This document shows, in pieces, positions 2,461-56,302 of a DNA stretch of 64,000 nt. Location: the IMG/VR virus record IMGVR_UViG_3300022723_000184, positions 96,001 to 160,000 of that record; one strand, 5' to 3'. The position numbers were made by a program, and so were the translations under genes. The stretch's first letter is position 1, and each line of letters opens with the position of its first letter. This stretch comes from a virus (Duplodnaviria; Caudoviricetes). The notes beneath the pieces were generated by a model. The model did not search any database. It was not told where the DNA came from and worked only from the letters and a program-made list of their open reading frames with translations.

Positions 2461-4156
2461 GGCCAAGAATTACATCTACACCGACCTGTCCGAGGACGAC
2501 GTCCTCGAAGTGGAGATTGACGGCCAGACGTACAAGGCCGTCAATTTCACGATGTCGTTTGCGCTCAACTCGATCCCCCAGGCCGCGGCCACCCTGGCCA
2601 TCGGCCGGGAAGCTCTGTCTGGCGAGCCGGCGAAGATCGCGGAGACGGCGGCCGAACTGACTTCGATGAAGCCAGTGAAGGTCACGTTCAACGCCGGCGG
2701 CGAGTGGGACTCCGAAGGCACCAAGTGGCCCGGCAAGCAAACGATCTTCGAGGGCTACTTCACCGGGTTTTCGTACAAGAAGCTCTATGGCAAGGTCCAG
2801 GTCGTGGCCAACTTCATCCATTGGCTCGTGGACCTGGGCTTCAGCTCCTGCCTCAACTCTCAGATGCACGTGGGCAACCCGGGCGTCATGCTGGGGCCGG
2901 CCGTCATGTCAGTGCAAATTAACTCGGCGGGCGGCGCAGGTGCCAGTGACAAGAACAGCGCCCTGGTCGCCAACCACATCGGTTACGACCTGATCGCCAA
3001 CAACGTCGAGTCCGATTGGTGGAAGACGATCAAAAGCTATCTGTGTGCACTGGCCGGGGTCTCCGGGTTGGCGACCAGCGCCACTGCTACGTGCGAGGGG
3101 ACCGGCGACATCACGGCGAACGACCGGGCGCTCAGAGCCCTGTCCCGGATTGAGGGAGAGGACCTGGCCGGCGAGTGCTCTCGCGACTACGAGTTCGGCA
3201 AGGCCCTGCCCCTCGAAAGCCGAGGCCAGCGGCAGGTGCCCGATGCCGTGGCGAAGTCTGTGGCCAACTCGTACATGCAGTCCTACTTCAACCAGACGTT
3301 CTGGGACCTGCTGGTTAAGGACCTGCTGCCGAGCTTTGGTGCTGCGGTCATGCCCCTGGTCGACCGGGCGGTGGTCATCGCCGACCTCCCGACCTGGCAG
3401 GGCGTCAGCAACCAGCCCTGGAAAGAGATTGGCCCCGACGAATACGTGGCGATGGAGCAGGACTCGAAGATCCCACAGCCGTTGCGGGGAATCGGCATCT
3501 ACGCTCCGGTCGCCGGTGAGACGAACGTCCAGTCAGTGTCCGGCCCTTACAAGCCGCAACTCGGCGGCTGCTACGTGTCGGACGCCGAGGAGGACTCGGA
3601 CGGCACACTCAAGTACGTGACCGCGCCCCGTTGGTTGTTGGGGGTCCCGTCCGAAGGCCTGTACGCCGGCGCCATGACCGGGAACAAAGAAGAGAAGTCG
3701 ATCAAGTCGGCGACCCACGGCCAAGAGGACAAGATCGACACCCCCGAAGACCCTAGCCCGGTGGATACGTTCGAGACGGTCAACGAGCTGATGGTGCGGT
3801 ACGCCCACTGGCTTTTCACGATGGAATCACTTCGTGGCCGGAGCGCCATCTTCTCTGGTAGACTGAGGTTCGACATCGCCCCGGGGTCCCACCTGAAGAT
3901 CGTGGGCTCACCGGAGCAGTTCCTGGAGACCGACGCCCTGGCCTCCGACGTCTACGGCATGGTCCGTGCGGTCACGATCGGGATCGACATCGAGGCGAGG
4001 GCGGCGGTTACCTCATACGTGCTGTCACACAATCGAAACGAGGCAGAGAACGAGGCCGAGCGGACGAGTATCGAGGAACATCCACTGTTCGGGTCAGCGA
4101 TCGTCAACGGGGCGCCGCTGGTCAAGGCCTTGGACCTGGGGAGCGAAGATGCCTGA
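2432..4156 (+). CDS. Baseplate hub protein (late control D/gp27-like); start may be TTG 2453
   Basis: ~575 aa; C-terminal GRLRFDIAPGSHLKI...GMVRAVTIGID pattern typical of hub proteins; context. Confidence 0.5.
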   Translation: MKHGDRWLAKAKNYIYTDLSEDDVLEVEIDGQTYKAVNFTMSFALNSIPQAAATLAIGREALSGEPAKIAETAAELTSMKPVKVTFNAGGEWDSEGTKWPGKQTIFEGYFTGFSYKKLYGKVQVVANFIHWLVDLGFSSCLNSQMHVGNPGVMLGPAVMSVQINSAGGAGASDKNSALVANHIGYDLIANNVESDWWKTIKSYLCALAGVSGLATSATATCEGTGDITANDRALRALSRIEGEDLAGECSRDYEFGKALPLESRGQRQVPDAVAKSVANSYMQSYFNQTFWDLLVKDLLPSFGAAVMPLVDRAVVIADLPTWQGVSNQPWKEIGPDEYVAMEQDSKIPQPLRGIGIYAPVAGETNVQSVSGPYKPQLGGCYVSDAEEDSDGTLKYVTAPRWLLGVPSEGLYAGAMTGNKEEKSIKSATHGQEDKIDTPEDPSPVDTFETVNELMVRYAHWLFTMESLRGRSAIFSGRLRFDIAPGSHLKIVGSPEQFLETDALASDVYGMVRAVTIGIDIEARAAVTSYVLSHNRNEAENEAERTSIEEHPLFGSAIVNGAPLVKALDLGSEDA

Positions 4157-4874
4157 GACACCCGATATCGATTTCGACCAGGCGTATACGTCGTGGGCCT
4201 CGGACAGGTCTCCGCAGGCCAACGCCACGATCCTGAAGGTTCTCGACCCGGTGATCAGCCAGGCGGTGCAGACACACGTCGGTACGAGCAACCCGCTGCT
4301 CAAGGCCCGGGCCCGGAAGATGACGCTCGGCGCCCTGGGCTCGTTTGACCCGAAGCGGGGCCGGCTCAAGAGCCACTTGTATTCGCAGCTCCAAGGCCTC
4401 AAGCGGCAGCATGCCAAGCAGCAGAGCATCTTCCGGGTGCCCGAGCGGCTGATGTTGGACCGCCGAGGTCTGAAGGCGGCGCAGCAGGAACTGGAAGACG
4501 AACTGGGGCGGGAGCCGACGGACCAGGAGCTGGCGACGCGCACCGGGTTCTCGGTCGACCGGATCTCTCGCATCCGGCAGTTCAGCCCCGCGATGAGCGA
4601 GGGCTTCTTCTCGACGGTGGGCGAGGGCGGCATGGTCCCACAGTCCACGAGCCCGATCAGCCAGCAATCGTCGTGGGTCCAGGTGGTGTACGACGACCTG
4701 GGCCCGCTCGACAAGAAGATCATGGAGTGGACGCTGGGCCTCAATGGCCAACCCCGACTCTCGAACCAGGAGATTGCTTTGAGGCTCAAGAGGTCCCCGG
4801 GCGCCATCAGCCAGCGAAAGGCGCTGATCCAGCAGATGCTTGACGAGGAGCAGGACCTTTCCCCTTTTCTATGA
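4149..4874 (+). CDS. RNA polymerase sigma-70 family factor (FliA/SigF-like)
   Basis: Region 3 motif ELGREPTDQELATRTGFSVDRI; region 4 HTH LSNQEIALRLKRSPGAISQRK; region 2-like helix. Confidence 0.85.
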   Translation: MPETPDIDFDQAYTSWASDRSPQANATILKVLDPVISQAVQTHVGTSNPLLKARARKMTLGALGSFDPKRGRLKSHLYSQLQGLKRQHAKQQSIFRVPERLMLDRRGLKAAQQELEDELGREPTDQELATRTGFSVDRISRIRQFSPAMSEGFFSTVGEGGMVPQSTSPISQQSSWVQVVYDDLGPLDKKIMEWTLGLNGQPRLSNQEIALRLKRSPGAISQRKALIQQMLDEEQDLSPFL

Positions 4875-4882
4875 AACTATGC

Positions 4883-4917
4883 CAGCTCGTCGGCTTAAAA
4901 GCGAGACAAGGCGAGAC
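4883..4917 (+). repeat. Degenerate solitary CRISPR repeat A (sense, upstream of RBS)
   Basis: CAGCTCGTCGGCTTAAAAGCGAGACAAGGCGAGAC resembles repeat CTGCTCATCGGTTTAGAAGATGAGAC; stem CTCGTC/GGCGAG + AC; 31/35 identical to the copy at 33550 (-). Confidence 0.75.
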
Positions 4918-4931
4918 CTCTGAGGTAGACC

Positions 4932-5408
4932 ATGGGTACCGAACCGAAACCACAGTCCAAGGCCGAGATCGACTCGAACTTCGAGGGTCAGATCAAGAAG
5001 CTGCGTGAGCGGGCCAAGGACGAGGCCGACGCGAAGCTGGGCGGCGACAACGCCCAGTGGAACATCCCGGAGCTGGGCGATTGGGACGGCGACCTGTTCG
5101 CGGTCGAGGAGATCAGCGACGCGTTCAAGCGGGAAGAGGCCAACGAGAAGTTCGAGGAGGCGACCAAGGACTCCAGCTCGCCGGGTGTCGCCGGCGACCT
5201 CGGCGTTACCACACTGCAGGTTGACTACTTGGCCTGCATGGACCGGGCCTTCCGGGCCAGGCACACGATGCGACGGCCCCGGACCATGGCCCACATGACC
5301 GGCCGCCGCAAAGGCCACGGCAACGAGCGAGGTACGCTGACCCAGACGGCGTTGGAGTTCGCCCGCAACCTGCTTAAACAGGCCCAGGCGTCGGGAGGTG
5401 GTAGCTGA
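4932..5408 (+). CDS. Hypothetical protein in baseplate module
   Basis: RBS GAGG; coding-like composition; overlaps next start. Confidence 0.6.
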   Translation: MGTEPKPQSKAEIDSNFEGQIKKLRERAKDEADAKLGGDNAQWNIPELGDWDGDLFAVEEISDAFKREEANEKFEEATKDSSSPGVAGDLGVTTLQVDYLACMDRAFRARHTMRRPRTMAHMTGRRKGHGNERGTLTQTALEFARNLLKQAQASGGGS

Positions 5409-5893
5409 TGACCGTGACCGGATCCGTTGCTGCCTACGCCGATCGTCAGATCGACATGCTGGCTTTCCAGAACCCAGGTATCGGGAGCCTGGAACTGGTC
5501 GACTTGATCCTCGTCCCCGACGGCGGCAGCGGGTTCAGCATCGCCGGCATCGCCAAGCTCGCCCAGCGGTTCTTGATCGAGCTGCTGACTGAGCAGGGAT
5601 CGATCCCGTACGACACGGTCCGCGGCTCGACGTTCCTCACCGAGCTTCGGCAGGGTAGGGTGCGTACGACGCCGGCCGCCGAGACCGCGTTCTACCTGGC
5701 GCTGGACCAGGTGAAGCTCCAGCTGCAGCTGGAGGAGTCCGACGACATGCCCGACGACGAACGGTACGGGCGAACGACCCTCGACTCGATCGTGCTGTCG
5801 CCGGCCGATACGGTAAAACTACGACTGACGTTGTTCAGCTTGGCGGGGACCGGCGTGACGCTGTTGCTCCCGATTGAGACTACGCTTGGATAG
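5408..5893 (+). CDS. Baseplate wedge subunit, gp25/GPW-like
   Basis: LAQRFLIELLTEQGSIPYDTVRGSTF motif; size; precedes baseplate J. Confidence 0.65.
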   Translation: MTVTGSVAAYADRQIDMLAFQNPGIGSLELVDLILVPDGGSGFSIAGIAKLAQRFLIELLTEQGSIPYDTVRGSTFLTELRQGRVRTTPAAETAFYLALDQVKLQLQLEESDDMPDDERYGRTTLDSIVLSPADTVKLRLTLFSLAGTGVTLLLPIETTLG

Positions 5894-5922
5894 TGCCAGC
5901 TCGCTGGCGAATAGAGCGAGAC
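5887..5922 (+). repeat. Degenerate solitary CRISPR repeat B (sense, upstream of baseplate J RBS)
   Basis: TAGTGCCAG-CTCGCT-GGCGAATAG-AGCGAG-AC: same 6-bp stem, 9-nt loop and AC tail as the repeat; three compensatory pairs. Confidence 0.75.
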
Positions 5923-5939
5923 GATAAGGCAGGGAAGCC

Positions 5940-7643
5940 ATGACGATTCAGATCACCAACCTGGACGACGTGAACCAAGAGCTTGTCGCGGACAACCTCG
6001 ACGAGATCATCACGCGCCTGCAAGAAGACAACCCATCACTCGACCTCCGGCGAGGCGTCCTCAAGGACCTGCTTGCCGGCTACCACGCGTCGCTGAGCGC
6101 TGCCGAGCAGCAGACGTTGGCCCGGTACCTCAGCGCCCGGTCGCTGCAGCAGATCGAGGCCGATCCGACGCTGGCCGACGAGGGGGTGACCGACGACGTC
6201 CTCTCCAACTACCGGGTCACCCGGCAGCAGGGGGCTACGGCCCAGGGTGAGATCACGATCGTCGTCAGTCAGAACACCACGGTGGTCATCTCCGAGGGAG
6301 CCATCTTCGAGGCCGACGGGCAGCAGTTCGCTAGCGATTCGGTGTTCACGGCCAAGACCGAGGCCGCCCAGATCAACACGTCGACCGACCGCCTGCTTCA
6401 ACAGCGATCGGACGGCAACTGGTTCTTCACCATCACGGTGACCGCGGCCGAAGTCGGGACCGAGGGGAACATCGCCAAAGACACTTTCATGGTGCCGGCC
6501 GTGCCCCCGCCCAACTACGTCACGTCGTTCGCGACCAACGACTTCGTGAGCGGGACCAACACCGAGACCAACACCCAGCTGCTCCAACGATTGCAGGAGG
6601 GGCTCGCGGCCAGGGCCCCGTCCAACCGCACGAACATGAAGGGGATGCTCCGAGAGATCTCCGACGAGGCGTACGCCGGCAACCTGCATAGCTCGATCGT
6701 CGGGTTCGGCGACGAGGAGATGCTCCGTGACCAGCACACGATCTGGCCCGGCAGCCTGGGCGGGCGCTCCGACTGGTACATTCGCACGGTCGAGCAGCTG
6801 TTCCGGCTGACGCTGCAGCGGGAAGCCACGCTCGTCCAGATCGGGACCCGTGGCGAGCTATCGAATAACTGCTCGCCCGGAGGCCCCAACGCCTCGGACA
6901 TCGTAACGGTCTGGCAGTTCGCCCTGGCCCGCGACGACGCCCCCGGTTTCTACGAGATCCGGACGGTACGCCCCCTGGGATTCGATGAGGCCAGCGGCAG
7001 CTTCGAGATCCTGGCCGACATCCGGGGCCTGGACCTGACGGGCGACGGCTTCGTCCCGGACATCGACACCGTGGAGGAAGGGGCGTACAGCCGCTACCAG
7101 ACCACGGTCATCAAGTTCATTGACGACCAGGTTGACCCGACCACGGTCGCGGTCGGGGACACTAGCGCCTACGACGTGTCAGTGGCCATGATGCCCCAGA
7201 TCGGCGACATCCAGGACGACCTGAACACCCGCGACATCCGCAGCTACGGGTCCGACGTCCTGATCAAGGCCCCGGTACCCTGCTTCGTGTCGCTCTCGTT
7301 CACGATCAACAAACAGAACAACGTGCCGGACCCGGACCTCGATGCGATCAAGACGGCGTTGGCCAAAGAGGTCAACACGATTGCGTTCCTAGGCCGGCTG
7401 TACGCTTCGCAGCTGCACGACGTGATCCAAGGCCTGCTCGGAACCACGACCAGCGCCGGCAAGATCGACATGTTCGGTCGCCTGCGTTACCCGGACGGCA
7501 CGACCAAGTACGTCCGTGACTTTGAGGTGCTGGCGATCGACGGGCCGGCCGGGCAAATGGTCAGCCCGAAGACCGTGCAGTTTTATCTGGACGTCGAGGA
7601 CATCTCGATCTCGATCGCGACCAGCGTCCCCGTGCCCTCTTAA
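5940..7643 (+). CDS. Baseplate J-like protein
   Basis: ATAQGEITIV..VVISEGAIFEADGQQF and ITVTAAEVGTEGNI / GTNTETNTQLLQRL motifs of the baseplate J family. Confidence 0.8.
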   Translation: MTIQITNLDDVNQELVADNLDEIITRLQEDNPSLDLRRGVLKDLLAGYHASLSAAEQQTLARYLSARSLQQIEADPTLADEGVTDDVLSNYRVTRQQGATAQGEITIVVSQNTTVVISEGAIFEADGQQFASDSVFTAKTEAAQINTSTDRLLQQRSDGNWFFTITVTAAEVGTEGNIAKDTFMVPAVPPPNYVTSFATNDFVSGTNTETNTQLLQRLQEGLAARAPSNRTNMKGMLREISDEAYAGNLHSSIVGFGDEEMLRDQHTIWPGSLGGRSDWYIRTVEQLFRLTLQREATLVQIGTRGELSNNCSPGGPNASDIVTVWQFALARDDAPGFYEIRTVRPLGFDEASGSFEILADIRGLDLTGDGFVPDIDTVEEGAYSRYQTTVIKFIDDQVDPTTVAVGDTSAYDVSVAMMPQIGDIQDDLNTRDIRSYGSDVLIKAPVPCFVSLSFTINKQNNVPDPDLDAIKTALAKEVNTIAFLGRLYASQLHDVIQGLLGTTTSAGKIDMFGRLRYPDGTTKYVRDFEVLAIDGPAGQMVSPKTVQFYLDVEDISISIATSVPVPS

Positions 7644-7660: not shown

Positions 7661-9211
7661 ATGGCCGACTTCCTCTATCCGACCAACGACTTCGACCGCC
7701 GCAACCGGCTGCTGGCTGAGGTGGCGTCGTTCTGGAACAACGTGTTCGGGCAGCGGGAGTTTGTCCGCGACATCCTGTTCGCCAAGGGTCAGCTGGAGCA
7801 GCAGACGGTTCAGCAGCTGACCGAGCTGTTCGATTCGGTCAGTCGCTTCAAGCTGCCGCCGTTTCATTTAGAGCGATGGTATCTGATCACGCTGCTGGAG
7901 TCTGACCTCAACCAGGGCAAGGCCGCCCAGCTGCTGTACGACGGTGAGGTCGACTACGACCCGACCGGCCCTTTCAAGTACGGGGTCCCCCGACAGCTCA
8001 ATCAGTTCACGTGGGATGCGCCGGCCGAGCTGGTCGACACCGGTGTCCTGGTCAACCGGATCCACGACGCCAGCCTGACGATGACCCGGGGCGTCGACTT
8101 CCTGTTGGAGGACGGGAGCCTGTTCTTCAGGGAGAACCCGTTCGACAACCCGCTGGTCCCGGTCCGCGACATCGTCGTCGGCCAGGAGGTCGTCGACCGG
8201 CAGATCGGTCTGTGGGTCTTCCAGGCCAAGTTTGACTGGGACTACATCTTCGAGCAGTTCGGGTACGTCATCCAGCTGTCGCTGGAGAGCGGCGACGAAT
8301 ACAAGGGCATGATCAACGCGGTGTTCGACGCCCTGGTCGAGGGCACGACCCAGCGGTCGGTCGAGAACGCCTTCGAGGCGATGACCGGCTCCACCCTGGT
8401 CCAGAACCCGACGGAGACCGTCAAGGCGATCGTCGACGAGCCGGGCAGGCAGCTGGTGATCACCGACCAGGTCGTCTACGAGTACAGCGACCTGGTCAGC
8501 GTCATCGTTTCTGTGGGCGACAAGGTCATCGAGGGCCAGGCTCTGGTCGACACGCTCCAGTTCTTCGAGTTCAACCGGGGCCAGTGTCCGACGCAGGAGC
8601 AGTGCCAGGCGGTCGCCTTGGGTCGTGGTTTCCTGGGTCGCGGGTTCTTCGGTGACCTGGTGTTCGAGAACAAGAGCACGCCACTCGTGGTCGAGACCGA
8701 CGACGAGGGGTACACCAAGGTCAGTTGGGAGATCGGCGGGTTCCCGACCGACGTCGTGAAGTTCTTCGACGACCTGCACGCTAACGGGCTTGCCGCCGGC
8801 CAGACGCTGGCCAACCTGCTCGACACCCGGACCAATAAGGTCGGCGAGCCGCAGGCGAGCAACCTACCGACCACAATCAACCCGTTCGAGTTTCTGTGTC
8901 AGAACGTGCTGAGGAACCACGCCTACCTGGCCAAGATCCGGACGGCCGGCTTCGGGCCGGGCGCCGTGGGCATGAACGCCGGAAAGATCCTGAGAAAGGT
9001 ACATCCACCGCAGACTGCTCTAATTATCGCCGCGGAATTGGCTCACACGGACGATCCGATTATCATGGAAGATCCGGGTACGGAGACCGCGCCGGGCTAC
9101 GAGGAGACCGTCTCGACCTACACCGGAATGGTGCAAGCCGAGACGATTTCACCGGATACGGCGATGGACGAGTGCGTGCGGGTCAAGCTGATCTCGGGCC
9201 GCTGCACCTAA
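7661..9211 (+). CDS. Baseplate wedge protein (tail protein I/gp7-like)
   Basis: Follows baseplate J; 516 aa structural-type composition. Confidence 0.45.
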   Translation: MADFLYPTNDFDRRNRLLAEVASFWNNVFGQREFVRDILFAKGQLEQQTVQQLTELFDSVSRFKLPPFHLERWYLITLLESDLNQGKAAQLLYDGEVDYDPTGPFKYGVPRQLNQFTWDAPAELVDTGVLVNRIHDASLTMTRGVDFLLEDGSLFFRENPFDNPLVPVRDIVVGQEVVDRQIGLWVFQAKFDWDYIFEQFGYVIQLSLESGDEYKGMINAVFDALVEGTTQRSVENAFEAMTGSTLVQNPTETVKAIVDEPGRQLVITDQVVYEYSDLVSVIVSVGDKVIEGQALVDTLQFFEFNRGQCPTQEQCQAVALGRGFLGRGFFGDLVFENKSTPLVVETDDEGYTKVSWEIGGFPTDVVKFFDDLHANGLAAGQTLANLLDTRTNKVGEPQASNLPTTINPFEFLCQNVLRNHAYLAKIRTAGFGPGAVGMNAGKILRKVHPPQTALIIAAELAHTDDPIIMEDPGTETAPGYEETVSTYTGMVQAETISPDTAMDECVRVKLISGRCT

Positions 9212-9224
9212 AGGCAGGGAAGCC

Positions 9225-9815
9225 ATGCAAGAAATCATCCTCCCAAACAAGAGCGTCTCTGGTCGGGTCCGCGCCCACGAGGTTCGTGGCGACGTCTGGG
9301 ACCTTCTGACCGCGTGGGACCACAACCAGGTCCTCTACGGCTGGGGGACCGTGGTCGGCACGCTGCTGACCAAGGGCCTGTCCAACTACCGCATCGGTGG
9401 GATGTACCTGGAATACGAGAACGTCGCGGACCCCGACGACCCGGTGTCGGCCCCGACCTTCGACCGGAGCGGCGGCAAGAGCTACTACGACGGCCTGGGC
9501 CTCAGCGCGACCCGCGACTACCTCCGCGTCCCGCTGACCGCCTCGCTCTTGAGCAGCAGCGATGAGACGCTGTTCCCGGACGGCAACGTGATGACGTTCT
9601 TCGCCCAGTCCCAGGGCGTGACGGGGGCCAACGGCAAGGCGTTCAGCGACACGGTCAACTCCAAGATCTACGGAGGGGCCCTGGTCGCTTTCCTGGATGA
9701 GGCGGACGCGGATCAGGATATCGTCTTCAGCCGCTTCTACTTCTCGGTGGCGAACCAGCAGGTGAAGTTGCCCACCTCCCAGATCGGGTTGGAGTGGGAG
9801 ATCACGCTGCAGTAG
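9225..9815 (+). CDS. Tail/baseplate-associated protein
   Basis: Context; 17-nt RBS/start region identical to that of baseplate J. Confidence 0.45.
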   Translation: MQEIILPNKSVSGRVRAHEVRGDVWDLLTAWDHNQVLYGWGTVVGTLLTKGLSNYRIGGMYLEYENVADPDDPVSAPTFDRSGGKSYYDGLGLSATRDYLRVPLTASLLSSSDETLFPDGNVMTFFAQSQGVTGANGKAFSDTVNSKIYGGALVAFLDEADADQDIVFSRFYFSVANQQVKLPTSQIGLEWEITLQ

Positions 9816-9888
9816 CGGCTAGAGTCACACCTTGTAAGCCGGTGCGCTGGCATGGTGACGCTAGTATAGCTAGATAAGGGGCTCAAGG

Positions 9889-11679: not shown

Positions 11680-12632
11680 TGCCAACACCCACGTGGAACA
11701 TCGAGTGGCTGAACCACAACTCGCAACGGCGATACCCGCTGTTCGACGACAGCAGCGCCGTTGACGACACCGGCTCGTTCGAGATCCCCAACGACTTCCT
11801 CGTGGAGCTGGACTTGCCCGTCCACGCGGGGCTCGACGTGGACCCGGCCCGCTTCTTCATCAAACACATCGGCGCCTACGCCACAGGGTTCAGCGTTGTG
11901 GTCGGCTACCAGCCGGAGGTGGGTGACGCGGTCGACGTGGCCACGGCCCTGATCAACAGCGACACCCACGCCAAGAACACGCCTTATCAGCTGGGCGGTG
12001 TCGGGGATTTCTCGGATACCAATGGCAAGCTGGTCATCGGACGCCTGGAAGAGATCCTGAAGCAGCCGGCCGGGTTCTTCACGTTCACGCTGGACAACGG
12101 CCGGCTCACTCCGGACACGACCCGGCCCATGATCCGCGGCATCAGCTCGATCCAGATCCGGTCGGGCGACGACGTGAGCGAGCGGATGTACGGTGACATC
12201 GAGCTGCAGCCGTTTGACAACATGCAGATCGTACCGATCATCGTGGCCGGCCAAGACCCGATCATCCGGTTCAGCGCCGTCGACGGCGAGGGCTTGGCCG
12301 AGGTCTGCGACTGCGAGGGCAACGTGCTGACCGCTCCGATCCGCCGGATCAACGGCGTGCCGCCGACGGCGGCCGGCGACTTCACGATGCTGGGCAACGA
12401 TTGTTTGGTGCCGACGCCGATCGAGAACGGCCTTAAACTTGACGACATTTGCTCCGAGCCCTGTTGTGGGTGCGAGGAGTTGGAAGCGATCACCCGCGAC
12501 CTCGAAGCGTTCGGGGCCAAAGCAACGACCCTGGAGAACTTCCTGGTTCGTCTGGAATCCTCGGTGACCCAGATGGACAGCGTGGTTCTCTCAGCGCAGC
12601 TCAGGGACAAGGGCTGCATCGACTGCGACTAA
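11679..12632 (+). CDS. Cys-rich tail protein (paralog family member 1)
   Basis: WLNHNSQRRYP N-terminus; RRING..P..AGDF; CSEPCCGC motif shared with downstream paralogs. Confidence 0.55.
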   Translation: MPTPTWNIEWLNHNSQRRYPLFDDSSAVDDTGSFEIPNDFLVELDLPVHAGLDVDPARFFIKHIGAYATGFSVVVGYQPEVGDAVDVATALINSDTHAKNTPYQLGGVGDFSDTNGKLVIGRLEEILKQPAGFFTFTLDNGRLTPDTTRPMIRGISSIQIRSGDDVSERMYGDIELQPFDNMQIVPIIVAGQDPIIRFSAVDGEGLAEVCDCEGNVLTAPIRRINGVPPTAAGDFTMLGNDCLVPTPIENGLKLDDICSEPCCGCEELEAITRDLEAFGAKATTLENFLVRLESSVTQMDSVVLSAQLRDKGCIDCD

Positions 12633-28037: not shown

Positions 28038-28138
28038 AGTCACGCCTTTTGAACCGGTATGCCGGCATGTTGACACCAGTACGGCTACCTAAATAAACGT
28101 GTTTTTTGCGTCAAAATACATGCAGGCAAATTAGCCCG

Positions 28139-28174
28139 GTCTCATCTTCTAAACCGATGAGCAGGTATTAAGAT
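28139..28174 (-). CRISPR. Solitary CRISPR repeat C with leader end and -10 box
   Basis: 35/36 identical to the array repeat; preceded on - strand by TATAAT-ACCGAGG, like the array leader TATAAT-GCCGCGG. Confidence 0.92.
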
Positions 28175-33351: not shown

Positions 33352-33545
33352 TGCCAGAGATCAAGTTCCACTTCCAGAAGGGCGGCAAGGTCAACATGGA
33401 GGTCAACGGGGTGAAGGGAGAAGGCTGCCGCACCCTGACCGCCGCGTACCGCGAGAAGATGCTCGGCATGGTGACGTCGGACGAGCCGACTGACGAGATG
33501 TACGAGGCCGAGACGGAAAACGAACAGGAGCACGAGCACGGATGA
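33351..33545 (+). CDS. DUF2997-like small protein
   Basis: GKVNMEVNGVKGEGCRTLT..LG motif. Confidence 0.65.
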   Translation: MPEIKFHFQKGGKVNMEVNGVKGEGCRTLTAAYREKMLGMVTSDEPTDEMYEAETENEQEHEHG

Positions 33546-33549
33546 AGCT

Positions 33550-33588
33550 GTCTCGCCTTGTCTTGCCTTTAAGTCGGCGAGCTGCATT
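33550..33588 (-). repeat. Degenerate solitary repeat F with own -10 box (TAGAAT, 33595-33600)
   Basis: - strand AATGCAG-CTCGCC-GACTTAAAGGCAAGACAA-GGCGAG-AC; 31/35 identical to copy A. Confidence 0.75.
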
Positions 33589-33615
33589 GTCCGTATTCTA
33601 CTCAGGTGAGTCTAG

Positions 33616-35139
33616 ATGAAACTTAAAAAAGCGATTGAGGAAGCGGTCTCTGCCGGCTATGGCGGGATCTGGGTCCGCTCCCCTGAACACGAAGACGCCA
33701 TCCGCCTGATCAGTGACGTGTGCAAAGAGTTCGGCTGGAACATGGCCATGTTCGACCTGGACCGTGGCTTCCGCATCGTTGGTGCGGAGGAGTCCCATGT
33801 CACCGAACCGAGCTTGGGCGCAGCGCTCAAGGCGTCGATCAAGTGGGTCGAGACGGCGGACGACGTGGAGACCGAGGACTCGCAGTACCTGCTGGTCGTT
33901 CGCAACCTTCACTTCAGTCTGAATAACAGCAAGACGATCCAGATCCTGCAGCACGTGATCGAGGAGGGCGCCGCCCTCGGCCTTCACGTGATCGGCCTGA
34001 CGCCTGAGGGCATCAAGCTGCCGCGGGAGCTGGACAATTACTTCTACCCCACGCACCACACGCTTCCGGACATGGGGGAGCTGTACGACCTGGTGCTTGA
34101 GGTGGACGACGAGATCAAGATGCCCGAGAAGGGATCCAAGGACGCTGAGCAGCTTTTGTCGAACGTGACGGGCATGACCCGTATGGCGGCAATGGGCGCC
34201 TACGGCATCTCCCTGGCCCGCCACAACAAGATGGACCCGGAGACGCTCAGCCAGGTCAAGTCCGAGACCATGGAGGCCGGCGGCCTGTTGTCGATCCACG
34301 AGTCCAAGCAGGGCTTCGAGGCGGTGGCCGGCTGCGACCACATCAAGGACTTCCTCAAAACCGGCATCCTCTCGCCGAATAAGACCGACGTCGTTCGGTT
34401 GCGTGCGGTGATGCTGCTGGGCTGGCCGGGCACCGGCAAGTCGTTCCTCACCCAGTGCCTGGGTAAGGAGACCACCCGGCCGACCGTGGAGGTCGACGTG
34501 GGGGCTCTCAAAGGGAGCCTGGTGGGCCAGACCGAGGAGAACACCCGCAGGGCCCTGGCGACACTGGACGCCATGGCCCCGTGCATCGCCTACTTCGACG
34601 AGATCGAGAAAGCGGTCACGACCAACGCCATGGACAGCGGGGCCAGCAGCGGACAGCTGGGGGCCCTTCTGACGTGGCTGAACGACCACACGTCAGACGT
34701 GGTCTGCGTGTTCACCTCGAACGACATCTCGCACCTGCCTCCTGAGTTCCTGCGGGCGGAGCGGATGGACGGGATCTTCTACTTCGGCCGGCCGACGCGT
34801 GAGGCGAAGGACCGGGCGTGGGAAATCTACGAGGCCAAGTTCGGTGTCTCGGGCGAGCGCCCGGACGACACGGACTGGACGCCGGCCGAGATCAAGACCT
34901 GTTGCCGGCTGGCCGCCCTGTTCGACCGGAGCCTGGTCGACTCGGCGAACCAGGTGGTGCCGGTCTATCGGACCAATGGCGAGAAGATCAACGCCCTCGA
35001 AGAGTGGGCCGAGGACCGATGCCTGAGCGCCGACTACCACGGCGTGTTCACGCGGAAGTCCCGTCCCAAGATGATCGAGCGGCCGGGCGGTGGCGAGAAG
35101 CCTCGCCGGAGGGTCCGCCGCAAGGCTGGGACCAAATAA
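33616..35139 (+). CDS. AAA+ ATPase, Ycf46-like
   Basis: Walker A GWPGTGKS; Walker B IAYFDEIEK; SRH TSNDISHLPPEFLRAERMD. Confidence 0.88.
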   Translation: MKLKKAIEEAVSAGYGGIWVRSPEHEDAIRLISDVCKEFGWNMAMFDLDRGFRIVGAEESHVTEPSLGAALKASIKWVETADDVETEDSQYLLVVRNLHFSLNNSKTIQILQHVIEEGAALGLHVIGLTPEGIKLPRELDNYFYPTHHTLPDMGELYDLVLEVDDEIKMPEKGSKDAEQLLSNVTGMTRMAAMGAYGISLARHNKMDPETLSQVKSETMEAGGLLSIHESKQGFEAVAGCDHIKDFLKTGILSPNKTDVVRLRAVMLLGWPGTGKSFLTQCLGKETTRPTVEVDVGALKGSLVGQTEENTRRALATLDAMAPCIAYFDEIEKAVTTNAMDSGASSGQLGALLTWLNDHTSDVVCVFTSNDISHLPPEFLRAERMDGIFYFGRPTREAKDRAWEIYEAKFGVSGERPDDTDWTPAEIKTCCRLAALFDRSLVDSANQVVPVYRTNGEKINALEEWAEDRCLSADYHGVFTRKSRPKMIERPGGGEKPRRRVRRKAGTK

Positions 35140-37829: not shown

Positions 37830-38020
37830 GCCTTGGCGCTGGCGGCAGAATGTCGTGGTCGCGGTCGCGGTCGTGGTCGCGGTCGTGGTCGTGGTCGTGG
37901 TCGCGGTCGTGGTCGGGGTCGCGGTCGTGGTCGCGGTCGTGCTCGGGGTCGCGGTCGTGGTCGCGGTCGTGGTCGCGGTCGTGGTCGTGGTCGCGGTCGG
38001 GGAGCGACAACAACCGATAG
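37826..38020 (+). CDS. Ser-Arg/Ser-Trp dipeptide-repeat peptide
   Basis: ATGA overlap with previous gene; stop overlaps next RBS. Confidence 0.55.
   Translation: MSLGAGGRMSWSRSRSWSRSWSWSWSRSWSGSRSWSRSCSGSRSWSRSWSRSWSWSRSGSDNNR
37853..38002 (+). repeat. Hexanucleotide tandem repeat TCG(C/T/G)GG, ~25 units
   Basis: Directly visible 6-nt periodicity. Confidence 0.95.
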
Positions 38021-39160: not shown

Positions 39161-40048
39161 TTGGCCAAACGCAAGTTCACGATGCACGAGCAGATGATCT
39201 TCGACGTAATCCGCAAACAGGCGGGCACGCTGTCGAAGGCGGCGTTGGAAGGCGTGATGAACGCCGTCGACGCCAACGCCTCCGAGATCAAGATCACGCT
39301 CGACGAGGGCAGGATGACCCTGTCCGACGACGGTAAGGGGTTCCGGTCCAAGAAGGAGATCGAAGACTACTTCGAGACCTTCGGCCGACCTCACACAGAG
39401 CAAGAGCAGAAGGTCTTCGGCAAGTTCCGTATGGGTCGCGGGCAGATGTTCGCGTTCGGCAGGAACCTGTGGGAGACCGGACGATTCCGGATGGACGTCG
39501 ACGTCAAGGACAAGGGCCTGGATTACGACCTGAAGGAGCTGTCCGAGAAGGAGCGGGCGCCCGGTTGCTCGATCACGATCGAGCTGTACGACCAGTTGCT
39601 GCCGAGTGACGTCGACAAGACGGTCAGGGACCTGGAGCTGTGGTGCAAGTGGGCGCCGCTCCGTGTGGTGCTCAATGACCGGGAGATCAGTTCGGATCCC
39701 GCTGCCCAGGAGTGGCAGTACGAGACGGACGAGGCCTACGTCAGTCTGACGGGTGTCGGCGGTCTGACGATCTACAACCAGGGCGTGTTCGTCATGGACA
39801 TTCCGGCCTACCGGTACGGGACGGGCGGCGAGGTCGTGACCAAGATGGGTCAGGATCTTGACGTCAACTTCGCCCGCAACGACATCCTGGCTTCGTGCCC
39901 GATCTGGAAGAAGGTCTCGCCCTTCATCGACCAGCGGGCCACGGAGAAGAACACCAAGAAGCGGGCCCTGGACGACGGCGCCCGCCAGAGGCTGGCCCAC
40001 CAGTTGAAGGCCGGCGAAGAGATCGAGTCTCATCTTCTAAACCGATGA
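39161..40048 (+). pseudogene. GHKL (HSP90/MORC/rIIA-like) ATPase, truncated by a CRISPR repeat
   Basis: EGVMNAVDA, DDGKG, GKFRMGRG motifs; last 7 codons come from the inverted repeat; likely C-terminal remnant at 40077-40130. Confidence 0.7.
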
Positions 40049-40062
40049 GCAGGTATTAAGAT
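40027..40062 (-). CRISPR. Solitary CRISPR repeat G with leader end and -10 box (TACAAT, 40070-40075)
   Basis: 35/36 identical to the array repeat; 46 nt identical to copy C. Confidence 0.92.
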
Positions 40063-53550: not shown

Positions 53551-53575
53551 CTGCTCATCGACAAGAGGATGAGAC
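53551..53575 (+). repeat. Degenerate solitary repeat H in the cas12m 5' UTR
   Basis: CTGCTCATCG-ACAAGAG-GATGAGAC: first 10 and last 8 nt identical to the repeat 3' part; exactly 20 nt before the ATG. Confidence 0.88.
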
Positions 53576-53595: not shown

Positions 53596-55365
53596 ATGGG
53601 ATTCAATAAGGACCCAGAGGCCCGCTGTGTGGTTTACCAGTACGGCGGCAAACATCCGACGGAAAACGAAGACGAAGCGATCAACCAGCTCGCCAAGGCG
53701 AACCGTTTTCGGAACCGGCTCGTTGAGTTGGAGCTACAACGACGTGAAGAATACCACGCTGCGTTCTCGGGTTACGGAGACCTGGCGGAGCCGTCAAATC
53801 AGCTTGAGACGCTCAACGAGCAGCTGACCGCTGCGGTGGCAGAACTTAAGGCGTGGAGACAATTGAACGGCACTCGAAGTCAACACCCGACGCTAACCCC
53901 GCAGATCGTTTCGCTACGGGCTCAGGCTCGCCAGCTACGGACACAGATCAAGTCGATCAAGGAAGCGGCCAAAGGCGATCCTACGGTGCAGGCGGCAATC
54001 GAAAAAGCAAACCAGCAGCACCGAGATCAGACCAAAGCTGCGTACGGCGCTGTAAGAGAATCGAACCCGGAGGCCGAGGACGCCAGAGACCGGCATGGGT
54101 TGTTCTGGGGAACGGCCCTCCTAGTTCAAAGGGCAGCGACACAGTTCCAGAAGGGCCCTCCCCCGAGGTACAAACGTTTCGACGGGACGGGAACTATCGG
54201 CGTGCAGCTGCAGAACGGGATGTCTGTGGAGGATCTGTTCACTCCGGGCGGCAGCGTCTGGATTGACCCCGTTCCTCCGGAGGCCTGGGACCCGCAGACG
54301 CCGAGAGGTCAAAGGCGAAAACTCGCAAGAACGATGCTACACATGCGGATCGGCGGGAAGCCGCAGGCCTGGGTGATTCTAAAGCTACCTGTCACCGTGC
54401 ACAGACCGCTGCCTGCAGGAAAACTTATCAAGTGGGTCACGGTCACTCGGCGTAAGTACGGTTCACAGGCGCGGTGGTATGTAAACGTCACGACGGATAT
54501 CAGGTCTGGTGGCACGCTTCACGATGATGTTGCGGCTGCCGGATTTGTGGGTGTCGACCTGGGTTTCAGGTTGTTCAAGCCCGCAGAAAGCAGCTCAGGC
54601 AAGCGATCGCTCCGAGTGGCTGTATGGGCCGGAGATGACGGGGAGACAGGCGAACTTCGCCTCGACGCGAGGTTTATGTCCTACATCTCAAAGGCCGACG
54701 GTTTGAGGTCGATCCGGGACAAGCGGCTTGATCAGATCAGAGCGGCGCTGCTTCCGTTGTGTGACGAGGCGGGTACGCCGGAGTGGTGGAAAGACGACAC
54801 TCAACACATGGCCAAATGGAGGTCTCCTCGAAAGCTGTATCACTTGCTCCACAAGTGGAAAGACAACAGGTGGGATGGCGACAAAACGCTGTTCGATCTG
54901 TTGGTTAAGTGGGTAGTTCAGGACCGTCACCTCCACGTGTGGGAAGCCAACAATCGCCGAAAAGTAGCGGCTCGTCGCCTGGACATGTACCGGAACCTGG
55001 CGGCCTCTTTGAGGCGCAAGTACGCGGTTATCGGGATCGAAGACATCGATTGGCGGATCTGGAGCAAGTTGGCCCTGCCCGAAGAAGAGGAGACCAAGTC
55101 AAAGAAGTTCCGTGTTCAAAAGAAACATGCGGCGGTCGGTCTGCTTGCAGAGACGCTGTCGAATTGCGGGGCACAGGTTGTACGTTTGGATCCCGCTTAC
55201 ACGACGAAGCGGTGCAACGCCTGCGGCAAGATCACCGAATTTGACGCTGACCGGCACCTGCGACATACGTGCGAACATTGCCATGCGGAGTGGGACCAAG
55301 ACTACAATGCGGCAAAGAACCTGCAAGACATGGCGAGCGGCAACGCCGTAACGCAAACCGCGTAG
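53596..55365 (+). CDS. cas12m: Type V-M CRISPR effector Cas12m-like (589 aa)
   Basis: LFWGT, RYKRFDGTGTIGVQLQ, VHRPLP, KWRSPRKL, EANNRRK motifs as in Cas12m; RuvC D321/E482/D569; CNAC..CEHC zinc finger; adjacent array. Confidence 0.88.
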   Translation: MGFNKDPEARCVVYQYGGKHPTENEDEAINQLAKANRFRNRLVELELQRREEYHAAFSGYGDLAEPSNQLETLNEQLTAAVAELKAWRQLNGTRSQHPTLTPQIVSLRAQARQLRTQIKSIKEAAKGDPTVQAAIEKANQQHRDQTKAAYGAVRESNPEAEDARDRHGLFWGTALLVQRAATQFQKGPPPRYKRFDGTGTIGVQLQNGMSVEDLFTPGGSVWIDPVPPEAWDPQTPRGQRRKLARTMLHMRIGGKPQAWVILKLPVTVHRPLPAGKLIKWVTVTRRKYGSQARWYVNVTTDIRSGGTLHDDVAAAGFVGVDLGFRLFKPAESSSGKRSLRVAVWAGDDGETGELRLDARFMSYISKADGLRSIRDKRLDQIRAALLPLCDEAGTPEWWKDDTQHMAKWRSPRKLYHLLHKWKDNRWDGDKTLFDLLVKWVVQDRHLHVWEANNRRKVAARRLDMYRNLAASLRRKYAVIGIEDIDWRIWSKLALPEEEETKSKKFRVQKKHAAVGLLAETLSNCGAQVVRLDPAYTTKRCNACGKITEFDADRHLRHTCEHCHAEWDQDYNAAKNLQDMASGNAVTQTA

Positions 55366-55502: not shown

Positions 55503-56247
55503 ATCGTAATACCTGCTCATCGGTTTAGAAGATGAGACGCGGCATTGATTGCCTTCTTGAGTTGCTGCTCCAACATCGTAATACCTGCTCATCGGTTTAG
55601 AAGATGAGACATCGCCGCATCGCTGGAAGCGGGCGTGGCGTCGGCGGATCGTAATACCTGCTCATCGGTTTAGAAGATGAGACCTTTCTCTGTGTCCGAG
55701 ATAACGGGGTCACTAATGTCATCGTAATACCTGCTCATCGGTTTGGAAGATGAGACAAGCATCCGAGCAGCCGCTACAAGGACAAGATCGGCATCGTAAT
55801 ACCTGCTCATCGGTTTAGAAGATGAGACTAGTCGGGCAATTGCTCGAACGGCACAGAGATATCGTCATCGTAATACCTGCTCATCGGTTTAGAAGATGAG
55901 ACGCTTACCGGTGGCCGAGGCCAAGGCGCGATGGAGAACATCGTAATACCTGCTCATCGGTTTAGAAGATGAGACACGGTGGATCCGGTCGAGCGGCTGA
56001 TCCTTCACATCATCGTAATACCTGCTCATCGGTTTAGAAGATGAGACCCGGTGATCGACGCGGTCCTCGAGAACGCCGAGGACATCGTAATACCTGCTCA
56101 TCGGTTTAGAAGATGAGACAAGTGGATCAGGTTCTTCTCATCGTAATACCTGCTCATTGGTTTAGAAGATGAGACGCGGACTGCCCCGAGATGCGGCGCC
56201 GGCTGTGGGTAATCGTAATACCTGCTCATCGGTTTGGAAGATGAGAC
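55503..56247 (+). CRISPR. CRISPR array: 11 x 36-nt repeats ATCGTAATACCTGCTCATCGGTTTAGAAGATGAGAC, 10 spacers
   Basis: Repeats start at 55503, 55575, 55648, 55721, 55793, 55867, 55940, 56012, 56084, 56140, 56212; spacers 36-38 nt except spacer 9 (20 nt); 3' hairpin CTCATC/GATGAG + AC. Confidence 0.99.
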
Positions 56248-56302
56248 GAAGATGAAACAGAAGGCGAGACAACGACTTGATCGCTAAGGATGGAGAAAAT
56301 AG

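Follow-up and report, generated by a model that had tools for sequence, protein, structure and literature searches.

A Cas12m repeat-like hairpin in front of a phage baseplate gene

We analysed a 64-kb window (positions 96,001 to 160,000) of the phage record IMGVR_UViG_3300022723_000184 (Caudoviricetes; 201,946 bases, ~90% complete), which encodes the effector Cas12m together with an adjoining CRISPR array. The element in question, hereafter the candidate, is a hairpin 48 kb from cas12m that lies in the gap between an upstream open reading frame (ORF) and a baseplate-J-like gene. Sequence comparisons strongly support its being a genuine diverged solitary copy of the CRISPR RNA (crRNA) scaffold of the phage's own Cas12m, inserted at this junction. 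Coordinates refer to the window unless marked as genome, and those of the main features are collected in Table 1.

The intergenic gap is 46 nt long (5894-5939), and the hairpin stands directly ahead of the ribosome-binding site of the baseplate-J-like gene; the initial annotation had placed it upstream of baseplate J. All six pairs of the stem, formed by CTCGCT (5900-5905) and AGCGAG (5915-5920), are Watson-Crick. The 9-nt loop (GGCGAATAG, 5906-5914), the AC tail (5921-5922) and the 17 nt that separate the tail from the ATG, all noted earlier, can be read directly from the DNA. Folded in isolation, the canonical hairpin has a predicted energy of -8.8 kcal/mol (family range -5.2 to -10.6). No promoter or terminator was predicted around the candidate, a reading of the hairpin as a terminator was rejected because it has no T-run, and Rfam had no family covering the window.

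The candidate is a marginal member of a family of solitary repeat-like units

The repeat of the phage array has the stem CTCATC/GATGAG, a 9-nt loop (GGTTTAGAA) and the tail AC. Our recount agreed with the 18 identities in 36 positions reported for the hairpin against this repeat. The 9 matches in 12 positions claimed for the 5' flank were also counted correctly, except that the first three letters of that flank, TAG, are a pre-existing stop codon and lie outside the element. A triple compensatory change in the stem had been proposed as well; relative to the array repeat, three pairs are indeed altered on both sides, whereas a comparison with the closest members of the family (stems CTCGCC/GGCGAG and CTCGTC/GGCGAG) shows compensation at a single pair.

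Besides the array, the genome contains ~18 solitary repeat-like units on both strands. Their stems vary yet stay paired (CATATC/GATATG, CGCACC/GGTGCG, CGCACC/GGTGTG, CTCGCC/GGCGAG), with G-U pairs in the repeat sense only; when 18 distinct rows are aligned, pairing is kept in 98% of the stem cells, and both-sided changes occur at 5 of the 6 pairs. A second helix is predicted, in which GGY, at the start of the loop, may pair with RCC of the 5' flank to form a pseudoknot. The middle pair of this pseudoknot covaries, being A-U in the array repeats and G-C in most solitary copies (one G-U, one mismatch). The candidate keeps the predicted pairing as C-G, C-G and G-C plus U-G, between TGCC (5894-5897) and GGCG (5906-5909). 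A reading of these units as promoters of the phage sigma factor was rejected, given that the stem covaries and that G-U pairs occur in the repeat sense only.

Within the family, the candidate is closest to a subfamily with stems CTCGYY/RGCGAG, sharing 22 of 30 positions with the unit at genome 163592(-) and 21 of 30 with that at 4879-4917, and it is ~27-50% diverged from every other copy. It is not a member of a CRISPR array: it is a single copy, its nearest neighbour (4879-4917) lies ~1 kb off, and no second repeat follows downstream. Covariance models trained without the candidate find it, at 17.0 bits with model R1 (nine sequences; E ~0.035) and at 20.2 bits with model R2 (15 sequences; E ~0.008), both in a 128-kb search and with E-values that are rough. 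Among sequences outside both training sets, its score is about that of the long-loop copy at 33550-33593. Of 16 family positions that are invariant or nearly so, it agrees at 12; among the four mismatches, two make up one compensated pair. A strict descriptor (6-bp stem, 9-nt loop starting with GG, AC tail) has only six unrelated matches in 404 kb (both strands), none with an ATRCCNG flank; the flank of the candidate is GTGCCAG. The family models, the retained stem and pseudoknot pairs and the insertion boundaries described below support the initial identification of the hairpin as a diverged solitary Cas12m repeat, although as a marginal member of the family.

Several other members have features of their own. 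At 53551-53575, 20 nt before the cas12m start codon, lies a repeat-like hairpin that has the stem of the array (CTCATC/GATGAG) and a loop of 8 nt; ten A follow it, and it scores 12.7-14.3 bits with the covariance models. An exact solitary repeat with a TACAAT promoter (40027-40062(-)) runs over the stop codon and the seven codons before it in the plus-strand gene 39161-40048, so that the insertion appears to have replaced the C-terminus of that gene. After another exact solitary repeat (28139-28174(-)), the sequence at 28104-28138(-) matches genome 189125-189153(-) at 28 of 29 bases. Both of these sites run into a TTATTTAGGT-like motif, which is also found ahead of repeat-like units at 28075-28090(-) and ~57240(+) and may mark a repeated promoter block.

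The hairpin is an insertion absent from relatives

Relatives were identified as baseplate-J homologues with 57-72% protein identity, and seven contigs were fetched. These came from a protein database; scans of viral contigs with the single proteins Cas12m and baseplate J yielded no relatives, a search of GenBank phages with the DNA of the region and with the array returned nothing, and the baseplate-J protein had only three weak matches among GenBank phages (~22% identity, Vibrio phages). In all seven nearest relatives, the gap before the baseplate-J gene is only 4-12 nt. In our alignment A6, the window has 35 extra bases between ...GGATA and GGCAGGG..., where all five closest relatives show a gap, and in the closest of them (L008) cttggatag is followed directly by gcagggatgcc and the ATG. 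The 35 nt consist of the 29-nt core (5894-5922) plus GATAAG (5923-5928), and the start of the insertion coincides exactly with that of the conserved core. The element is absent from all seven nearest relatives and from seven more distant ones; three complete, more distant relatives have neither Cas12m nor the hairpin. By these comparisons, it is strongly supported that 35 nt were inserted after the stop codon of ORF 5408-5893 and ahead of the baseplate-J ribosome-binding site.

The distance to the start codon follows from this history. Seven other sense-strand copies, one of them in the cas12m leader, also end 11-20 nt ahead of a start codon, largely because they were inserted into tiny ancestral gaps in which the ribosome-binding site had to be kept; the spacing of the candidate is fixed because the insertion went into an ancestral 11-nt gap. 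The fixed distance of the candidate is therefore not evidence for control at the ribosome-binding site.

Two sequence recurrences were also observed at this junction. A 17-nt string comprising the ribosome-binding region and start codon (AAGGCAGGGAAGCCATG) is identical at 5926-5942 and at 9211-9227, ahead of ORF 9225-9815. The shorter GCAGGGAAGCC occurs only three times in the genome, and the same string precedes the baseplate-J gene in the distant relative L003. The baseplate module is immediately preceded by the gene for a sigma-70-like protein (3966-4874; Sigma70_r3, E=1.2e-8), which relatives have conserved.

Several solitary copies lie downstream of TTN and between short direct repeats

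The candidate shares an insertion layout with several sister copies, in which TTN is followed by a direct repeat of 5-9 nt, the scaffold and the repeat again. This layout is present at six copies, a recurrence with a chance probability of ~1e-6, and sequences of relatives confirm it at three loci. It is strongly supported that the candidate, like those sister copies, sits a few bases downstream of TTN and is flanked by a short target-site duplication. In 6 of 18 copies (three exact), the six bases after GAC are found again, with TT before them, no more than 60 nt upstream. Under a null of random positions, an exact match is expected at 0.0015 per element (P ~2.5e-6 for at least three exact), and exchanging flanks between elements gave 0/306 exact matches and 9/306 with one mismatch; the test was devised after the pattern had been seen, and the margin is large nevertheless. 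Direct repeats of 5 nt at four further copies were within chance and were excluded from the count.

TTN precedes the upstream direct repeat in all six copies that have one, always on the 5' side of the scaffold. The protospacer-adjacent motif (PAM) of a Cas12 enzyme must lie 5' relative to the guide sense. A DDE-type transposon was rejected as the source of these insertions, the duplication length varying from 5 to 9 nt and TTN being found on one side only.

At the sister site 1 kb upstream (4866-4923), the insertion lies between the sigma-like gene and ORF 4932-5408 and is absent from relatives. The predicted empty gap there, GGTAGACC, is 8 nt long, and the gaps in relatives are 7-9 nt (L008, GGTGAACT, 8 nt; L024, 7 nt). 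The predicted empty gap at 9818-9877 is 22 nt, compared with 21-22 nt in L010, L012 and L024, and the TAA at 9875-9877 is the reverse complement of TTA, on the 5' side of the scaffold. At 33541-33626 the direct repeat includes the ATG of gene 33616-35139, and at two copies beyond the window the repeats are exact, one of 7 nt with TTA and one of 6 nt with TTT. Opposite-strand copies carry a conserved -10-like promoter.

Table 1. Coordinates of the candidate, its flanking features, sister insertions and the Cas12m locus in the 64-kb window.
Feature	Position	Strand	Details
Upstream ORF	5408-5893	+	Stop TAG 5891-5893, read directly
TTG, putative PAM position (5'-TTN) for the upstream direct repeat	5886-5888	+	Read directly
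GATAG, upstream direct-repeat copy	5889-5893	+	Contains stop TAG of ORF 5408-5893; ancestral (L008)
Inserted core, 29 nt, putative equivalent of the Cas12m crRNA scaffold	5894-5922	+	5' flank TGCCAG, stem, loop GGCGAATAG, tail AC
GATAAG, downstream direct-repeat copy (one extra A)	5923-5928	+	First letters of the would-be guide; alignment A6
Ancestral ribosome-binding region GCAGGGAAGCC and baseplate-J ATG	5929-5942	+	Conserved in L008 and L003
Baseplate-J-like ORF	5940-7643	+	Pfam Baseplate_J, E=2.6e-11
Sister insertion 1 kb upstream	4866-4923	+	TTT, CTATGA, AACT plus long-loop scaffold (4875-4917), CTCTGA
Sister insertion	9818-9877	-	In + coordinates: GCTAGA 9818-9823, scaffold 9824-9859, TATACT promoter-like piece, GCTAGA 9869-9874, TAA 9875-9877
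Sister insertion	33541-33626	-	9-nt direct repeat GATGAARCT (+ strand), 8/9 identical, TTA; scaffold 33550-33593
cas12m, 589 aa, presumed scaffold reader	53596-55365	+	PDB 23vw Cas12m, E=5.9e-67; Cas12m2 8hhl, E=1.5e-26; Pfam Cas12f1-like_TNB
CRISPR array adjoining cas12m	55503-56247	+	11 repeats of 36 nt, 10 spacers (nine 36-38 nt, one 20 nt)

The phage Cas12m and its array

Alignment of ORF 53596-55365 with PDB 23vw and Cas12m2 indicates that RuvC-like D, E and D motifs are apparently present. In characterised Cas12m enzymes, the crRNA scaffold is ~30 nt long and combines a stem with a pseudoknot (PMC10442227; PMC11013384), and GoCas12m recognises the PAM 5'-TTN (PMC11013384). Phage-encoded Cas12m was first reported in a 2026 preprint, in which solitary repeats are not mentioned.

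A second array was found on L021, an AT-rich metagenome contig of 87 kb that encodes the closest Cas12m homologue, with 46% identity. Its 10 repeats (11922-12614; GTATCAATGCTAGCTCATCAGCTTGAAAGATGAGAC) have the same stem, with one pseudoknot pair changed from C-G to U-A, and no solitary copy was detected within 10 kb on either side (a neighbourhood of 21.7 kb). Spacers of the phage array had no match in the phage's own genome or in the genomes of five relatives, and two of them had no exact match in viral contigs.

The one short spacer of the array, at 56120-56139, is 20 nt long, all others being 36-38 nt. The last repeat is followed (56248-56271) by two pieces in tandem that are similar to the repeat's 3' half (GAAGATGAAAC, AGAAGGCGAGAC). 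The tail ...GAGAC AAGGCGAGAC found there also ends the long-loop copies at 4879-4917 and 33550-33593(-). Elsewhere in the window, at 37852-37999, an ORF contains a tandem array of 12-nt units (GTCGCGGTCGTG, ~12 copies).

A possible role as a ready-made guide against the uninserted allele

We questioned what a single scaffold placed ahead of resident sequence might do. An RNA that continues past the scaffold has the duplicated bases first and the flank after them, and it therefore spells the uninserted allele, with TTN at the PAM position. The explanation we set out here, to which we give a little under an even chance, is that the candidate is a lone-scaffold guide serving against relatives without the insertion. 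The candidate would be transcribed within the baseplate operon and bound by Cas12m through the scaffold, which keeps the stem and pseudoknot pairs. Cas12m would then cut 5' of the scaffold, as in pre-crRNA, which Cas12m enzymes process inside the repeat (PMC11013384), leaving the next 17-20 nt (GATAAGGCAGGGAAGCCATG) as the guide. That guide would spell the uninserted locus, TTG plus GATA(A)GGCAGGGAAGCC..., and the phage's own locus, with GAC in the PAM position, would be exempt. The element would thus be a ready-made guide with which a non-cutting Cas12m could sit on the uninserted genomes of close relatives at the start of an essential gene, a form of interviral competition in which, in a phage with neither Cas1 nor Cas2, it is the repeat that moves to the spacer and not the reverse. 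The opposite-strand copies, with a -10-like promoter of their own, look built to make guide RNAs.

A broader form of this idea, which we consider unlikely on balance and put forward tentatively, is that the family consists of "reverse-acquired" guides: a scaffold, alone or with a small promoter, inserted 5-9 nt past TTN at ~18 sites and used in kin exclusion. Insertion might take place at a site bound by Cas12m, for example by a polymerase switching template onto the crRNA. Each insertion would remove the PAM from the phage's own locus and create a crRNA against the uninserted allele, and ~18 such sites would let a non-cutting Cas12m form roadblocks along the genomes of close relatives.

A number of observations weigh against the guide explanation. 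The closest known relative (72% protein identity) would not be matched by the candidate guide, and no natural target was found: the shared right-flank pattern had no match in metagenome contigs, and the single match of an empty-site pattern, in L022, was rejected as a chance match to the leader of an unrelated bacterial lipoprotein. The candidate is the weakest member of its family (17-20 bits, the others scoring 28-55 bits) and has the least typical loop, which departs from the family at conserved positions, for example with G for the near-invariant A at repeat position 28. The two copies of its direct repeat differ (GATAG and GATAAG), which gives the guide an A more than the simplest empty site. 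When 81 nt of context are folded, the minimum-energy prediction is a competing hairpin between TGCCAG and CTGGCG (z = -0.68), a result to be read with the caveat that folding programs cannot model the pseudoknot. C-rich PAMs occur in the Cas12m family besides T-rich ones. No transposase or reverse transcriptase that would explain the insertion was found in the genome. The baseplate protein may also be supplied in trans at co-infection, in which case silencing a rival might be harmless unless binding also blocks replication.

Other explanations of the hairpin were weighed against the same evidence. A leader acting in cis seems rather unlikely to us: Cas12m would bind the scaffold in the operon mRNA, cut upstream of it and hold the next 17-20 nt, with the Shine-Dalgarno sequence and ATG, thereby repressing or timing translation of baseplate J or stabilising the processed mRNA. 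The guide position does cover the ribosome-binding site, the processing of pre-crRNA within the repeat (PMC11013384) would supply the cut, and seven further sense-strand copies, including the one in the cas12m leader, stand at a similar distance from a start codon. However, insertion into ancestral gaps of 8-22 nt with the ribosome-binding site kept accounts for that distance, and no relative needs such control at this junction. The TTN and duplication pattern is left unexplained by a leader, as are the promoter-driven copies antisense to genes, which fit the production of guide RNAs better than leader control. It is also unlikely, but like the cis leader a live alternative, that the hairpin is a functionless footprint, the scar of a past insertion linked to Cas12m or otherwise caused and tolerated between the stop codon and the ribosome-binding site. 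Its low family score, diverged loop and two drifted direct-repeat copies would suit a relic, as would the failure to show either a target or conservation in relatives. Yet six Watson-Crick stem pairs and three core pseudoknot pairs have been kept despite ~27-50% divergence, which would be unexpected if the element were decaying freely.

Two further possibilities appear very improbable. Viral solitary repeat units can act as RNA anti-CRISPRs (Racrs; PMC10651486), and solitary units near cas12a have been proposed as effector inhibitors (bioRxiv 10.1101/2023.03.03.530964), so the repeats might be decoys that soak up or misassemble a host-encoded Cas12m or the phage's own. Here the repeats match the array of the phage itself rather than a known host array, the candidate is without its own promoter or terminator, and the PAM and duplication pattern would have no role. 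That the hairpin arose by chance and is unrelated to the repeats, for instance as a generic stabiliser of mRNA, strikes us as equally hard to credit. The 18/36 identity to the array repeat, the rough E-values of 0.008-0.035 and the six unrelated matches of the strict descriptor leave some room for it, whereas a chance hairpin would not be expected to have insertion boundaries that equal the conserved core, to share 21-22 of 30 positions with two members of the family, of which one lies at a distance of 1 kb, or to combine the TTN and duplication layout with a position where other copies sit.

Comparison with known systems

The candidate resembles the scaffolds of type V-M systems (MmCas12m2, GoCas12m; PMC10442227, PMC11013384) in having ~30 nt, a 6-bp helix, a predicted pseudoknot between flank and loop, and a short tail before the guide position. 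Unlike type V-M repeats, it lies outside an array, has no second repeat and shows just 50% identity to the repeat of the array, and the place of a "spacer" is taken by the ribosome-binding site and gene start of the phage itself. Racrs (PMC10651486) and the solitary units of type V-A (bioRxiv 10.1101/2023.03.03.530964) are likewise single copies, dispersed through a viral genome or close to cas genes, and the effector is presumed to bind them. Racrs, however, imitate the repeats of the host, in most cases almost exactly, and are produced as small RNAs, whereas here the copies derive from the phage's own repeat, many are diverged with compensated stems, and the insertion adjoins a putative PAM with a target duplication. 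The candidate itself has 50% identity to the only known cognate repeat, that of the phage, and no predicted promoter or terminator.

Mini-CRISPR arrays carried by viruses are also similar in that they are proposed to provide guides against close relatives and come without adaptation genes (bioRxiv 10.1101/2023.03.03.530964, refs 48, 67); the guide explanation agrees with the role accepted for them in conflicts among viruses. They hold acquired spacers between two repeats, in contrast to the single scaffold found here before resident sequence, the guide of which would be the ancestral allele. Solitary viral repeats as decoys or regulators, including Racrs and crRNA-like regulators, are already known; the combination of solitary repeats with an insertion and PAM pattern was not found in the literature searched.

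CreR and other crRNA-like regulators consist of a degenerate repeat and a partly matching pseudo-spacer that represses a promoter. The candidate is like CreR in its degenerate repeat, conserved structure and presumed use as a guide for regulation by an effector. It has no partial target flanked by a PAM at another locus; the one off-locus match to the guide, 17 nt long (9211-9227), spans guide positions 4-20 and has a mismatched seed and no TTN.

Cas12m descends from TnpB. In IS200/IS605 elements, the omega-RNA of TnpB takes its guide from the DNA that flanks the end of the element, so that the empty site with its target-adjacent motif (TAM) is the target and the occupied site is immune. The candidate has the same order of scaffold and then flanking DNA as a putative guide, and the uninserted site again carries the PAM or TAM and would be a perfect target, the occupied one being immune. 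IS605 makes no target duplication, whereas duplications of 5-9 nt occur here, there is no TnpA/TnpB transposon body, and Cas12m does not cut DNA. Nor do the copies resemble IS200/IS605-derived PATEs, non-autonomous elements that depend on TnpA and insert 3' of a fixed target motif without duplicating it, given these duplications, a variable TTNN context and a genome in which no Y1 transposase was found.

If the guide explanation is true, guides could be made without an adaptation module, which would be an undescribed route to CRISPR guides and a new means of competition between related phages. With its 29-nt core and a defined guide, empty site and putative PAM, the candidate is a clean testable case. 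Its logic resembles that of TnpB transposons that target their own empty sites and, if borne out, would link the function of Cas12m to its transposon ancestry.

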